From: a virus
Virus genome (UHGV): UHGV-0138535
Strand: one strand, 5' to 3'
Length of the DNA stretch: 53,721 nt
The position numbers were made by a program, and so were the translations under genes. The notes beneath the pieces are model-generated. The model searched no databases, had not been told where the DNA came from, and saw only the letters and a program-made list of their open reading frames with translations. Shown piece after piece: positions 2,747 through 53,238 of the stretch; the first letter of the stretch is position 1, and every line of letters starts with the position of its first letter.

Positions 2747-3025
2747 TTAAGCCTCAATAACACCGTAATCAAACGTGCCTAAATACAGTTCGATACTTAC
2801 AACCTCAATACCATCAATGCACCGTTTCCACACAGACACCTGGCTTTCATTTTCTCTGAAGTGCATATTAGAAAGCACTTCATCGGCTGGGTAGCCTTTC
2901 CCGGCGACGTAGGCATCGTGACCTACGCCACCTTCTACACAGTAGAGCATCAATTCGCGTTCCATCTTGCTTCCTCCGCACCGTAAACCTTTTAATTTCG
3001 ACTTACAAAACGGATACGCAATCAC
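2747..3025 (-). CDS. hypothetical protein (start uncertain)
   Basis: 92-aa track ORF; internal Met (MERELMLYCVEGG) may be the true start. Confidence 0.35.
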   Translation of the reverse strand: MIAYPFCKSKLKGLRCGGSKMERELMLYCVEGGVGHDAYVAGKGYPADEVLSNMHFRENESQVSVWKRCIDGIEVVSIELYLGTFDYGVIEA

Positions 3026-3063
3026 AATACAAAGTGTATATTCATGTAATCGGAATCACTCGG

Positions 3064-3684
3064 TTAATGCAGTACACGTTTCCCCTGTTCAGGCATCGGC
3101 TGTGCGTTTTTCCGTGCGTCATTAAGCACAGCGATAGCCGCCTGTACACCGAAATCATTTGCACGCATATCATTGCCAACCATTTCACCGTAAAACAATG
3201 GCATGAGCGCTTTTACTTCTTCCTCTTTGTGGCCTTCCTCAATGAATTTCTGCAACATCTTAACCTCAAAGATATCTTTCATCAGGCCGCGCATAGAATG
3301 TAGTGAAACACTACCAAGCTGATCCTTGTTCAACGGAAAAATAACAGCACTTCCGAACGCGAGCGGTTCAACCTCTTCCGGCACTGGTACGCGTCCGAAT
3401 TCTTCCTCCATGCGCTTCACAAAAGTAAGAGAGAATACATAACGCGCCACCGATGTTTTTTCTTCCATACTTAAAGACACGTAATCGCGGATTGGCGCAC
3501 CCATCACAATATCAACAACCTGTAGCGCCAGATTCAAATCAGCGTCATACGCGCCAGCTTCCATATCTTTCAATACTTCGTGATAATCTTTAATTTCCAC
3601 TTCGTGAAAGTTTGCATCATCTGTATAGCGAGTGATCAACATACCTTCATTACCGAGAGAGTAAGCTGTTTTGATGTCGTTCAT
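3064..3684 (-). CDS. hypothetical early protein
   Basis: 206-aa track ORF in early-left operon. Confidence 0.5.
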   Translation of the reverse strand: MNDIKTAYSLGNEGMLITRYTDDANFHEVEIKDYHEVLKDMEAGAYDADLNLALQVVDIVMGAPIRDYVSLSMEEKTSVARYVFSLTFVKRMEEEFGRVPVPEEVEPLAFGSAVIFPLNKDQLGSVSLHSMRGLMKDIFEVKMLQKFIEEGHKEEEVKALMPLFYGEMVGNDMRANDFGVQAAIAVLNDARKNAQPMPEQGKRVLH

Positions 3685-3697
3685 GATATTTATCCTT

Positions 3698-4030
3698 TTA
3701 TAGTGGGTGATGCCATTTCATTTCTGTTTCTGAATTAAACGGGTTTCCTTCGCTTGAAAGGAATAAATCACGCTCCCGTTTCAGTTCTTCCGGGCTTATT
3801 TCTATTTCATCAATCTGACCGAACGATCCCGGCATCATTCGTTTTAAATCAGATAGCGGACGCATAAGGCCGCAGCCGCGTAACAGCATATCGACCGCGA
3901 ATTGTCTACGTCCGGCGGCGTCATTAAAGCGCCGTGCCCAGGGTACAACCACGATCCGGCGTTCGAATTCGATAAATAGTGATAGCTTATTTGTTTCGCT
4001 ATCATAGGCCTTATGTAATTTAATTTTCAT
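3698..4030 (-). CDS. hypothetical protein
   Basis: 110-aa track ORF; overlaps next gene by 11 nt. Confidence 0.45.
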   Translation of the reverse strand: MKIKLHKAYDSETNKLSLFIEFERRIVVVPWARRFNDAAGRRQFAVDMLLRGCGLMRPLSDLKRMMPGSFGQIDEIEISPEELKRERDLFLSSEGNPFNSETEMKWHHPL

Positions 4031-50452: not shown

Positions 50453-50642
50453 CTTCTCTATTCCTCCCGTAAATGTGAACTGGCTCAATAGGTACGGCTG
50501 GCAATTCGCCTTCGTTTAATGCGCTTGCCATACCCAATATCAATCGCGCTTCTGCACCAGTTACTTTCTTACACCACGCGCCGCCCGTTTTATCTTCGAA
50601 CAAGATAACGGCAAACTGATCGTTTATTTCTAACTTGTCCAT
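50439..50642 (-). CDS. hypothetical protein
   Basis: 67-aa track ORF immediately downstream of Q-like gene. Confidence 0.4.
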   Translation of the reverse strand: MDKLEINDQFAVILFEDKTGGAWCKKVTGAEARLILGMASALNEGELPAVPIEPVHIYGRNREDENN

Positions 50643-51364
50643 TATTCACCCCGTGTCACTCGTTTAATTTCGCTTTCCGCGCGGGCCTCTTCTTTGAATA
50701 GCTCCGCTATGGCGTCTTCATAGAAAACCCGGTATTTCTTCCACCATGTTGATCTGCTTACCGGGAAAACAAGCTGGTTAACGGCCTGCCGGACGAGATC
50801 TACCGGGAAACGCGAGTACCCGCGCCCGCCGCAATGCTGGCACGTTTTGAATACTGGCATTTCCGCCGCTTCGCTGGCTGTTTTATCCGGTATCTCGCCA
50901 CGCCCCTTGCATTGTTTACAATGATTGCGAACCTTTCCATGCCCCTTGCATTTTTTGCAAAGATGTTTTTCTCCGTAGTCGTCAAACGTAAATTTATATC
51001 CGCCGCACTCCATACAAGTTTTTTCCGTCGCGGCGCTTTGGCAATAATCCCGAAACGCGAAAACGGCAACAAGAATAATAAGATCATTGCGTTGTTCTTC
51101 ATTTAATTCCATCACATATTCGTAATCTTTCGCCATAGCTCTTAAACGCTCTGTAAGCAATACTACAGCCCTGTGTTTTTCGGCTTGCGATAGCTCCATC
51201 TTCCCTAAAAAAGCACTATAGCCAAGCTCTACGCGCGATTGCGCCATACCCGCAGCGGTTAGCGCATCAGTCGTATTAAGCGCATCCGGGGATGTGCCCC
51301 GGCTTTCGTCTGATAATCGCGGTGATTTGGGAAAGTGGAATTTCAGAATGGATTCTAAATTCAT
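50642..51364 (-). CDS. putative late-gene antitermination protein Q-like (zinc-finger)
   Basis: 240 aa; follows NinG-RusA as Q does in lambdoid nin regions; multiple CxxC pairs. Confidence 0.6.
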   Translation of the reverse strand: MNLESILKFHFPKSPRLSDESRGTSPDALNTTDALTAAGMAQSRVELGYSAFLGKMELSQAEKHRAVVLLTERLRAMAKDYEYVMELNEEQRNDLIILVAVFAFRDYCQSAATEKTCMECGGYKFTFDDYGEKHLCKKCKGHGKVRNHCKQCKGRGEIPDKTASEAAEMPVFKTCQHCGGRGYSRFPVDLVRQAVNQLVFPVSRSTWWKKYRVFYEDAIAELFKEEARAESEIKRVTRGE

Positions 51365-51546
51365 TATTTCCCCCCGTAACGAGCAATAAGTTGTTTACGA
51401 TCAGAAATAGACTGGACTAACTTTTTCTCAAGCTCTTTCAATGCAAGCAATTCGCGCATATGAAAAGCCTGGATTTGTCGGACTGTAGCTAAATCATGCT
51501 CATCGCGCTGAATATCTATTTGCAGATCTTTAACTTCATTTTTCAT
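51364..51546 (-). CDS. small hypothetical coiled-coil protein
   Basis: ATG at 51546 with GGGAGGTG RBS inside track ORF 51364..51561. Confidence 0.4.
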   Translation of the reverse strand: MKNEVKDLQIDIQRDEHDLATVRQIQAFHMRELLALKELEKKLVQSISDRKQLIARYGGK

Positions 51547-51548
51547 TG

Positions 51549-51956
51549 TCACACCTCCCAATAATTCTGAATATATTCGTTAATATCAGGTAACACCCCT
51601 GAATGTTCTTTCACTTTTACGAATATCTGGCCGTTTTTTATTTTATGGCACTTTACAACCTTAAGACTAAAAACCTGCCTATCATCAACCCAAAAATGAG
51701 CGTAAGTAAGACTATCGAATATTGCTTTTAAGCAATTATCAATATCGTGTGGGCGTAGTGTAGGTGGCGCTACATATATATAAACGGAAACATTAAAATC
51801 AATATTAAGATCAAGTTTTAGTGATTCTATTATTTCTTTGACTTTTTTTTGGAAATCCTTGCCTTTGTTTGTTACATACTTACTACCCCTTTTATTGTTG
51901 CCGTAATAAGAATTAACCGATGGTGCCCAGGGTAACGTGAATTCAAATTCACGCAT
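51549..51956 (-). CDS. rusA: RusA-family Holliday junction resolvase
   Basis: Internal ATG at 51956 with AAGGAG RBS; LPWAPSVNSYY...RPHDIDNCLKAIFDSLTYAHFWVDDRQV matches RusA motifs. Confidence 0.75.
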   Translation of the reverse strand: MREFEFTLPWAPSVNSYYGNNKRGSKYVTNKGKDFQKKVKEIIESLKLDLNIDFNVSVYIYVAPPTLRPHDIDNCLKAIFDSLTYAHFWVDDRQVFSLKVVKCHKIKNGQIFVKVKEHSGVLPDINEYIQNYWEV

Positions 51957-52445
51957 CAAAATCTCCTTGCTTACACCATTGTTTTCATGGAAACAATATT
52001 TTTTTTCTCCTTTTTTTCTGACATCCACTGCATCTTCAAAATTATCAAACTGACCAAGATACACATTTTTACCATTAACACATATTTCCGCTCTATAGTA
52101 TCCGTTAGAAAGTTTATGAACCCCAGGCTGCCCACTTTTATTATTTTTTGGTTTTGCCTGATTTCTTCCGTTTTGCTTATGAGTAACAAGGCGTAAATTT
52201 TCTATCCTGTTATCATTTCTGTTGTGCCAAATATGATCTATCTCGCATCCTTTCGGAATTGGTCCGTTATGCATTTCCCATATAATTCTATGTACTTTAT
52301 GTAATTTATCGTTAACACGAACAACCCAATAACCACTATTTTTATGGATGCAACCAGCCAAATCACCAGCGTTACACTTTCCTTTCTTTCCCTTCCAATA
52401 TAAAAAACCGTTGTCGTATTCAAATATATCATGCCAATTATTCAT
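51957..52445 (-). CDS. HNH homing endonuclease with AP2-like DNA-binding domain (no own stop; in frame with rusA)
   Basis: N-terminal 163 codons of track ORF 51549..52445; HNH motif CEIDHIWHNRNDNRIENLRLVTHKQN and AP2-like GVHKLSNGYYRAEI; AT-rich. Confidence 0.65.
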
Positions 52446-53047
52446 GCTACCTTTCTCCTTAAGGCGTCCAATTTCGCCTGATAGATGTTTATTAGCTCCT
52501 TACATTCTGCAATCGTCCATTTATGCGTATCGTTGTTGTTCTCCAGAGCTACCACCCTGGCGAGGCCAATTTTTCGAATTAGCGCCGGGCGATACCCTCC
52601 TATGTTTCCGTCTAATGTCTGGTTGCAGTGCCTGCATTGTTTATGGCAATTCTCCTCGTTAAAGCGAAGGTGTCCTGCGGCGGCAACCGTCCTGTAATGG
52701 CCCGCATCCCACCCGCATTGCTCACCGTAGTAAGTCCCGCAGGATATACACGGCAAGCGCGCGTCACGTTCGCGGATATAGGCGTTGAATACGTTTTGAA
52801 CTTGCTTGATCCAGTAGCTGCGCGGATTTAACTGTTTCCGCTTCCGGTTGCGTTCTTCCCGCTGGCTATCGCGGCGTTTCTTCCGTTCCATAGCCTTCAT
52901 AGCCTTTTCACGGTCGCGGCATAGCTGGTCAAACTTCAGTTCTTCCAGACATTCATCGCTGCACCACGTTTGATTATGATATTTAGGCTCAAAAAAAACG
53001 CCGCAGCACTTGCAACGGCGTCTTATGGGTTTTTTAGGGTTTTGCAT
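52442..53047 (-). CDS. ninG: NinG recombination protein
   Basis: Start MQNPKK at 53047 inside track ORF 52442..53137; closely parallels lambda NinG (PRSYWIKQ...RERD..LPCISCGT...WDAGHYRT.AAA..LRFNE.N.HKQC..CNQ). Confidence 0.8.
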   Translation of the reverse strand: MQNPKKPIRRRCKCCGVFFEPKYHNQTWCSDECLEELKFDQLCRDREKAMKAMERKKRRDSQREERNRKRKQLNPRSYWIKQVQNVFNAYIRERDARLPCISCGTYYGEQCGWDAGHYRTVAAAGHLRFNEENCHKQCRHCNQTLDGNIGGYRPALIRKIGLARVVALENNNDTHKWTIAECKELINIYQAKLDALRRKVA

Positions 53048-53061
53048 AAAAACCACCCCGA

Positions 53062-53238
53062 TTATTTTTGATTCTCTGTTTCGTTCAGCCTTTCGGCGTG
53101 TCCGGCCCTTAGCCAATGTTCTAAGCATTCGTTGCACTCGTTACAGCCTCCTTTCTTCGTGCTGCATACATTGCACATTGCACGCATAACGCTTTCTCGT
53201 TCATAGTCGTCATGCCATTGGTAATTATCAAAAGGCAT
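53062..53238 (-). CDS. ninF: NinF-like small zinc-binding protein (58 aa)
   Basis: ATG with GGAGAG RBS; YERESVMRAMCNVC...CNECNEC resembles lambda NinF; not in track. Confidence 0.55.
   Translation of the reverse strand: MPFDNYQWHDDYERESVMRAMCNVCSTKKGGCNECNECLEHWLRAGHAERLNETENQK

Follow-up and report, generated by a model that had tools for sequence, protein, structure and literature searches.

Free-standing homing endonuclease genes (HEGs) are thought to persist by slipping between host genes without harm, and the homing enzyme I-HmuI nicks one strand. In phages, HEGs are known at boundaries of genetic exchange (PMC10448857). Here we describe an open reading frame (ORF) of 298 aa in the virus genome UHGV-0138535 (53,721 nucleotides, analysed as one stretch and called the window below), in which an N-terminal HNH-AP2 endonuclease runs without a stop codon into a complete RusA Holliday-junction resolvase. 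The source phage is an mEp021-like lambdoid phage, an E. coli prophage, and its DNA is ~87% identical to that of mEp515, mEp554, mEp010 and MagusPhagus. The ORF appears to be a rare variant in which a free-standing HEG was turned into the N-terminal domain of a neighbouring host gene through stop loss, and we consider it probable that a HEG at the ninG-rusA junction lost its stop codon, became fused with rusA and is spreading with it as a cassette.

The closest described relatives of the N-terminal half are the free-standing phage HNH(-AP2) HEGs of the HNH_3 family, for which I-HmuI is the structural reference and the MobE proteins of T4 and Aeh1 are functional examples. The window HNH has the catalytic motif and the AP2 fold in common with them, it is likewise ~160 aa long and AT-rich, it fits tightly between conserved genes so that start and stop codons overlap, and it is present or absent at one locus, at a genetic-exchange boundary (PMC10448857). 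Unlike these HEGs, it has lost its separate stop, so that translation is expected to run on into the host gene beside it, and the Pfam AP2 model gives it no score. The C-terminal half compares with lambdoid RusA (E. coli DLP12 RusA, PDB 1Q8R/2H8C, and the 135-aa mEp-type): it has the full-length fold and the catalytic Asp and Lys residues, it lies in the nin operon between ninG and Q, and it has the C-terminal tail '...LPDIxEYxxNxW' in common with the mEp-type protein, but it differs in a 163-residue N-terminal nuclease extension, in a GC content of 34% rather than 46% and in a His at the position of R69. A natural fusion of an HNH module with RusA has a precedent in DUF968 (Orf-like plus zinc-finger HNH), which CDD architectures show joined to recombinases, RusA among them, in phages that infect Gram-positive bacteria (PMC4118853). 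However, the window HNH is of the HNH_3/AP2 type and is found in other hosts, Pfam detected no DUF968 (PF06147) or Orf domain in it, and DUF968-RusA is a family-wide architecture whereas the window fusion would be a recent stop loss in one allele cluster. We found no paper on this HNH-RusA fusion or on the HNH genes of the mEp021 group.

The HNH-AP2 and RusA halves of one reading frame

The fusion ORF and its parts are as follows, with residues numbered along the fusion protein.

51549..52445, minus strand: HNH-AP2-RusA fusion ORF, 897 bp, 298 aa plus stop, ATG start (ORF listing, Pfam)
52164..52298, minus strand: HNH (His-Me finger) catalytic motif, aa 50-94 (Pfam HNH_3)
51993..52127, minus strand: predicted AP2-fold DNA-binding domain, aa 107-151 (fold model and homologues)
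51957..51992, minus strand: linker, aa 152-163, FHENNG-VSKEIL (homologue ends and model confidence score, pLDDT)
51549..51956, minus strand: RusA module, a complete Holliday-junction resolvase, aa 164-298 with the stop codon (Pfam, PDB 1Q8R)

The original prediction, made from the letters of the window, had claimed that a single ORF runs without a stop from an N-terminal HNH domain into a complete RusA, and this was borne out on the minus strand by Pfam matches to HNH_3 (PF13392) at aa 50-94 (73.9 bits, cut-off 24.8; E=8e-21) and to RusA (PF05866) at aa 173-278 (46.7 bits, cut-off 22.8; E=6e-12). In the first half, the motif CEIDHIWHNRNDNRIENLRLVTHKQN spans aa 67-92 and the motif GVHKLSNGYYRAEI aa 108-121. 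The conserved residues of the HNH motif are D70, H71, N79, N83, N92 and N95, and the catalytic residues are all intact, including the catalytic His and Asn of the ββα-metal motif by which HNH_3/His-Me nucleases are recognized; in a structural match I-HmuI was the closest solved HNH structure. The AP2-type domain named in the prediction is a more divided case. Pfam AP2 (PF00847) did not match aa 93-163 at a limit of E=10 (the HMMER filters discard most matches above ~E=0.1 despite this limit), while 35 of 65 aligned homologues matched it in the same region at E≤0.001. Moreover, an AlphaFold2 (AF2) model of aa 1-163 (pLDDT 91.9) places a unit of three strands and a helix at aa 109-149 (β-strands 109-111, 117-123 and 126-133, then helix 136-149), that is, the three-stranded antiparallel sheet against one helix of the AP2 fold. 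The assignment thus holds by homology and predicted fold and fails at the Pfam AP2 model of the window sequence itself.

PADLOC matched 'homing endonuclease' models and PHROGs call the protein a homing or HNH endonuclease; membership of a defence system was rejected, PADLOC having given nothing beyond these models. An intein was rejected likewise: Pfam detected HNH_3 and RusA only, with no Hint splicing domains, and since RusA is intact and preceded by the entire HNH, splicing is not needed. As for the HEG class, presence or absence at a fixed locus among close relatives was found, and the HNH does not form a separate ORF with both a start and a stop codon, 7 of 8 alleles having no in-frame stop before that of rusA. 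In several fusion-carrying prophages a further HNH_3 gene, 175 aa long, ~42% identical to the window HNH and preceded by a conserved 167-aa ORF, lies elsewhere in the nin region (830-1357 in contigs L011 and L012, 1421-1948 in L015, 903-1430 in L016). In the window, tblastn found no second copy of the HNH family.

In the second half, PDB RusA 1Q8R aligns to aa 165-280 over its residues 2-116 of 120 (E=8e-21), and NCBIfam PRK09786 scores 79.9 bits, under its 200-bit equivalog cut-off. The catalytic residues of RusA are D70, D72, K76 and D90 in E. coli numbering (PMC1636454), and D234, D236, K240 and D254 of the fusion correspond to them; D234, D236, N237, K240, D244 and D255 are invariant across 53 aligned sequences. 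The RusA half is confidently modelled (pLDDT 79-98; this full-length AF2 model was built with RusA homologue depth only, the HNH half being modelled separately), and its first strand begins at residue 166. It is 44-48% identical to its nearest relatives, with 47% aa identity to the resident rusA product of related phages. The starts of all aligned RusA relatives fall at, or a few residues from, the position of M164, and no RusA relative carries the N-terminal domain, which gives no sign of being ancestral to this gene family. Database labels for the fusion protein vary between 'HNH endonuclease' and 'RusA family crossover junction endodeoxyribonuclease', and either label conceals the other half.

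A replaced block at the ninG-rusA junction

The fusion gene lies in the delayed-early nin region, in the order ninG, HNH-rusA, small ORF, Q, and its neighbourhood consists of the following.

52442..53137, minus strand: ninG/rap recombination endonuclease gene, directly upstream of the fusion ORF (Pfam NinG E=4e-66; phrog_171)
52455..52460, minus strand: AAGGAG Shine-Dalgarno (SD) sequence, 9 nt upstream of the fusion-ORF ATG (SD:anti-SD ΔG -9.2 kcal/mol)
51364..51561, minus strand: small conserved ORF, 60-65 aa, downstream (phrog_18514)
50642..51364, minus strand: antiterminator Q gene (Pfam Antiterm E=1.7e-29; phrog_127)

The ATG of the fusion ORF overlaps the ninG stop codon as ATGA (52442-52445), and the small ORF overlaps the 3' end of the RusA module by 13 nt. 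In MagusPhagus, mEp554, mEp013 and ~40 complete E. coli genomes, ninG directly abuts a rusA of 133-142 aa without any HEG. The alignment with such phages, proposed with the original prediction as a check, put M1 of the HEG-less RusA precisely opposite M164 of the fusion (45-47% identity). The HEG-less rusA begins at the same SD and ATGAAT that the HNH ORF now uses, and the 40 nt upstream hardly differ between the window, the remaining fusion carriers, N921 (below) and the HEG-less MagusPhagus; hence the HNH ORF took over the ninG-coupled start of rusA. The ninG DNA is 96-98% identical to that of HEG-less relatives as far as position 52440, where similarity ends, and it resumes at 51547 (51592 for MagusPhagus). 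Thus the whole ORF is one replaced block, and the small ORF, at which backbone homology resumes, lies outside it. Both halves of the block have a GC content of 34% (28-30% at third codon positions, GC3), compared with 50% for ninG, 48% for Q and 45-46% for resident-type rusA, so the HNH was not slipped in front of a resident rusA. The comparison indicates that the RusA half is not the resident gene and that HNH and rusA arrived together as one AT-rich cassette. An HNH inserted between ninG and rusA, as first predicted, therefore stands as far as its position at the junction and the existence of HEG-less relatives are concerned, but not as an insertion beside the resident gene.

Among the carriers the cassette is 95.5-99.8% identical, against just 81-98% for the set of ninG, the small ORF and Q (81-97% for ninG and Q), and the most similar pairs of carriers differ between cassette and flanks. 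These comparisons show that the putative cassette moved between diverged phage backbones. Members of the fusion-protein cluster described below, P0133 (300 aa) and P0123 among them, vary at the extreme C-terminus (…NYWEV, …NYWEG, …NYLEW and …NYWGGEQ), the last of these tails resembling the resident-type …NMWGEQ; the right-hand recombination junction of the cassette thus varies within the RusA tail, with which the small ORF overlaps. Several genomes, GF66.2 and N921 among them, carry an extra AT-rich spacer of ~200-235 bp (37-38% GC, no annotated gene; 2184-2390 in L003, 2639-2873 in L001) between rusA and the small ORF, with a query-matching span of ~1137 bp; it is absent from the window and from MagusPhagus. 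Regarding the flanking genes, the longest ninG ORF has 231 aa from a GTG, and relatives are annotated with 201 aa, matching an ATG at 53047 that is probably the real start. Besides Antiterm, the Q protein has a weak match to a DnaJ-type CXXCXGXG zinc finger (PF00684, 26.2 bits, below the cut-off).

The same junction was invaded at least three times by different members of the HNH family, namely those of the window type, of the N921 type and of a third type in contig L016. In E. coli N921 (NZ_CP176484.1, locus L001), a related HNH of 175 aa (48-50% aa identity, first ten residues identical) forms a clean 491-bp insertion at the same site as in the window, after the ATGAAT that follows ninG. Like that of the window, this HNH is without the canonical '...HGK*' stop and reads on into rusA; unlike it, it is out of the rusA frame and stops 47 nt inside rusA, which gives two overlapping genes. 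Its rusA is of the resident type, 92% identical to the HEG-less allele, whereas the window has a 47%-identical, AT-rich allele in the frame of the HNH. Six of the 10 differences between the N921 and MagusPhagus RusA proteins fall in the first 16 residues (L001 2237-2290). Such a pattern would be produced by a change that confers immunity of the target site, or by co-conversion of a tract, and the cluster suggests that the recognition site of the HEG overlaps the 5' end of rusA. In L016 (a Logan contig from SRR21034889), a second HNH of 158 aa (2511-2987), 48% identical to the window HNH, lies between ninG and the fusion gene (3001-3897); a copy of the 16-nt TAAGGAGAAAGGCAGC, the usual SD-carrying end of ninG, comes after it. 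Hence, the junction is a repeated landing site at which tandem HEGs occur. The nearest free HNH homologues are found in unrelated contexts with tight overlaps to their neighbours: after a helicase gene, before a primase-polymerase gene and beside a DUF3987 gene. In Vibrio phage 1.176.O an HNH-AP2 gene (168 aa, 44.5% aa identity to the window HNH) lies directly upstream of a RusA gene (119 aa) with a TAATG overlap; unlike in the window, these are two separate genes of an unrelated marine phage and the canonical '...HENHGRG*' end is kept. The HNH of the window thus fits a member of a free-standing HEG family and a putative mobile invader of this junction.

Probable stop loss, internal start and selection on the fusion

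Free-standing HNH-AP2 homologues have ~157-175 aa and end in '...(Y/F)HENHG(K/R)' followed immediately by a stop codon; FHENHGK-stop endings are listed for homologues from L016, L011 and a Vibrio phage. The window reads TTC CAT GAA AAC AAT GGT GTA AGC AAG GAG ATT TTG ATG (F H E N N G V S K E I L M) at the corresponding place, and a relic TAA lies at 51971-51973 in the +1 frame, right after GGT-G, offset by 2 nt from the stop position of the homologues. This out-of-frame TAA means that a 2-nt deletion in the last Lys codon would explain the fusion. When two bases are restored in that codon, the sequence becomes '...GGT AAG TAA GCAAGGAGATTTTG ATG', in which the HNH gene ends normally and a 14-nt spacer bearing a consensus SD separates it from the start of rusA, and the junction of the unfused ancestor as reconstructed includes ...AATGGNAARTAAGCAARGAG.... 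The original prediction had left it open whether the endonuclease lost its stop codon or never had one, and the reconstruction points to loss by a 2-nt deletion rather than to the second possibility. The last six codons of the linker (VSKEIL) are the former ribosome-binding spacer between HNH and rusA, now translated. The linker (~12 residues) is predicted to be disordered, and residues 152-162 have pLDDT <50 in the full-length model. A search for the pattern with 1-7 nt before the relic TAA returned nothing from JGI metagenomes and only the fused form from IMG/VR.

Within the fused frame, RusA keeps its own AAGGAG (51968-51963), the spacer ATTTTG (51962-51957) and the ATG of M164 (51956-51954), at exactly the positions given in the prediction, and the N-terminus of free RusA read from M164 is MREFEFTLPWAPSVNSYYGNNK. 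This internal SD is strong (AAGGAG, -8.5 kcal/mol) in four of the eight alleles, the window and three others. No σ70-like site for an internal rusA promoter was found on the coding strand inside the gene, which is weak negative evidence. Right after the internal ATG lies a near-palindrome, CGTGAATTTGAATTCACG (51936-51953, minus strand, codons 165-170, R-E-F-E-F-T); the four L009-type alleles have it as a perfect 18-bp palindrome, CGTGAATTCGAATTCACG, that contains two EcoRI sites, and it is predicted to fold into an 8-bp hairpin from +4 of the internal start. Because no stop codon lies between the start at 52445 and 51549, the 298-aa fusion is the obligatory product of ribosomes that initiate at 52445. 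Purifying selection acts on the RusA half in every allele, from which we infer that the fusion protein itself supplies resolvase activity, free RusA being an allele-dependent extra.

An identical protein is already present in NCBI (e.g. EQQ76891.1), and the 90%-identity cluster of the fusion protein has 19 members; the 15 listed include 12 fusions of full length, 11 with 298 aa and one with 300 aa. Eight distinct DNA alleles, drawn from independent E. coli assemblies and metagenomes (NCBI, ENA, Logan, IMG/VR), were recovered; all have 897 nt with zero indels, and 45 of their 62 segregating sites are at third codon positions. The pairwise ratio of non-synonymous to synonymous substitutions (dN/dS) is 0.05-0.23 for the whole gene, 0.06-0.15 for the RusA half and 0.04-0.29 for the HNH-AP2 half, with dS up to ~0.22; the value of 0.29 comes from the closest pair only (3 synonymous versus 4 non-synonymous changes), and the HNH-half ratio is ≤0.13 wherever dS is ≥0.05. 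Low dN/dS and the lack of indels in eight alleles indicate that both halves are translated and constrained. Hence the fusion is real, with both halves kept functional by selection. No allele has a stop codon between the domains; one (L005/L006) has a CAG→TAG change at codon 132, inside the AP2 domain, which it truncates, and is annotated as a 131-aa HNH fragment plus a 135-aa RusA from M164.

Outside this cluster the fusion was not found. In an exhaustive HMMER search of 1.84 billion representatives, none of the best 150 matches was another HNH_3-RusA fusion and only its own cluster spans both domains; the long two-stretch matches that were checked were tandem HNH-AP2 duplications and were rejected. 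Searched from the RusA side, 0 of 97 relatives carry an HNH. None of 80 viral RusA loci in IMG/VR has a fused RusA, and four have an HNH within 2 kb. Neither 50,697 phage records nor 5,426 complete E. coli genomes contained the cassette, and one IMG/VR contig has the same fusion as the window. In Klebsiella and Escherichia phages, tblastn gave alignments that extend in one piece as far as aa 228-243; these were rejected as ordinary HNH genes of ~165-170 aa whose stops the alignment had overrun. PHROGs also gave a phrog_374 match that spans aa 53-278.

Homing, module exchange or a joint enzyme

In the explanation that we regard as probable, a free-standing HNH-AP2 HEG would occupy the ninG-rusA junction, starting at the SD and ATGAAT of rusA. 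It would first have ended in '...HENxGK-TAA', followed by a 14-nt spacer with AAGGAG and the rusA ATG, until a 2-nt deletion in the last Lys codon moved the TAA out of frame and brought the HEG into frame with rusA. The 897-bp unit moves between diverged backbones as a single cassette and displaces the resident rusA; in this explanation the HNH-AP2 module would cut or nick the ninG-rusA junction of HEG-less relatives that co-infect, whereupon recombinational repair would copy the cassette in. The fusion protein itself would provide RusA activity, its short disordered linker allowing the RusA dimer to form, and in alleles with a strong internal SD, such as that of the window, free RusA initiated at M164 may add to it. 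An engineered N-terminal FokI-(d)RusA fusion keeps its junction targeting (PMC12120656), so a bulky N-terminal nuclease can be tolerated.

Several observations weigh against this explanation. An unfused ancestor of the fusion lineage was not found in JGI metagenomes, IMG/VR or GTDB representative genomes, and a HEG-less copy of the window rusA allele was not found either, a word-indexed search giving just two 41%-identical proteins; the step by 2-nt deletion is therefore a reconstruction. Each half is ~50% diverged from its nearest relatives and the two have a GC content in common, which also fits an older, possibly functional, association. 'Homing' itself is read from family resemblance and distribution, and a cassette conserved above its flanks could reflect ordinary lambdoid module exchange. 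In the RusA half, R69 is replaced by His (H233), and the same column holds R or Q in other RusA sequences. Finally, the internal SD is AAAGAG in four of the eight alleles, by a synonymous AAG→AAA change, with ΔG of only -2.9 kcal/mol. Production of free RusA is thus not a conserved feature, and the suggestion in the original prediction that free RusA could be made as well as the fusion appears less secure than was implied.

It is also conceivable, although unlikely, that HNH-rusA is an alternative allele of a nin module with a passenger nuclease, exchanged by general or Red-mediated recombination as in ordinary lambdoid mosaicism, with no homing; the HNH may then serve interference with competing phages or DNA processing. 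The edges of the cassette are exactly the ORF ends, typical of lambdoid module junctions, there is recombination within the cassette and at its tail (HNH and RusA identities differ by allele pair, and the tail of P0133 is resident-like), and its rarity is unlike an efficient homing drive. However, module exchange fits less well with at least three invasions of the same junction by different HNH family members, and with the N921 substitutions clustered in the first 16 RusA codons beside the insertion, resembling target-site immunity or co-conversion. Moreover, the HNH family is scattered over unrelated phage contexts in the manner of free-standing HEGs, which are known to mark phage recombination boundaries (PMC10448857).

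That the fusion is a domesticated bifunctional enzyme, kept because the joined activities are useful, seems to us rather improbable. RusA is an obligate dimer (PMC1636454), and as the closest solved HNH structure, I-HmuI, is that of a monomeric homing enzyme, a RusA homodimer might pair two nicking HNH-AP2 domains to make a double-strand break, or AP2 might bring the resolvase to a particular site and thereby couple the making of a break to the resolution of the junction. The gene conversion that spreads the fusion would in that case be carried through from beginning to end by a single polypeptide, acting as a double-strand cutter made by the RusA dimer or as a resolvase tethered to the homing site, to which we likewise give little credence. 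Consistent with joint function are purifying selection on both halves and the frame kept by 7 of the 8 alleles with dS reaching 0.22, the equal GC and GC3 of the halves, the occurrence of the window rusA allele in fused form only, and the weak internal SD of half of the alleles, in which RusA activity probably comes mainly from the fusion. However, halves that work independently of each other would be expected to show the same selection, the linker is merely a translated ribosome-binding spacer with a relic stop, and the fusion is limited to one 90%-identity cluster of 19 sequences, with none elsewhere among the best 150 of the 1.84 billion representatives or at the 80 viral RusA loci. Moreover, the natural nonsense allele kills the AP2 domain and abolishes the full-length fusion. 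Least credible of all is an assembly frameshift or a decaying, non-functional HEG remnant: just 2 nt separate the fused from the unfused reading and one allele has a nonsense mutation, but the same frame in eight alleles from independent assemblies, which has survived appreciable divergence, together with the low HNH-half dN/dS and the intact catalytic residues, refutes this as far as sequence data can.

Under homing followed by stop loss, the locus shows visible intermediates: a HEG-less junction, the overlapping insertion of N921, an in-frame fusion with ~0.2 synonymous substitutions per site, and a nonsense derivative. The series from insertion to fusion is a clean one, any new function of the fusion being hypothetical. 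The locus would thus be a compact natural example of a selfish nuclease becoming a domain of a host recombination protein. It bears on whether RusA tolerates or benefits from an N-terminal site-specific nuclease, which is relevant to engineered RusA-nuclease fusions, and if the two activities do work together, it would represent a naturally occurring equivalent of the engineered FokI-dRusA nucleases.

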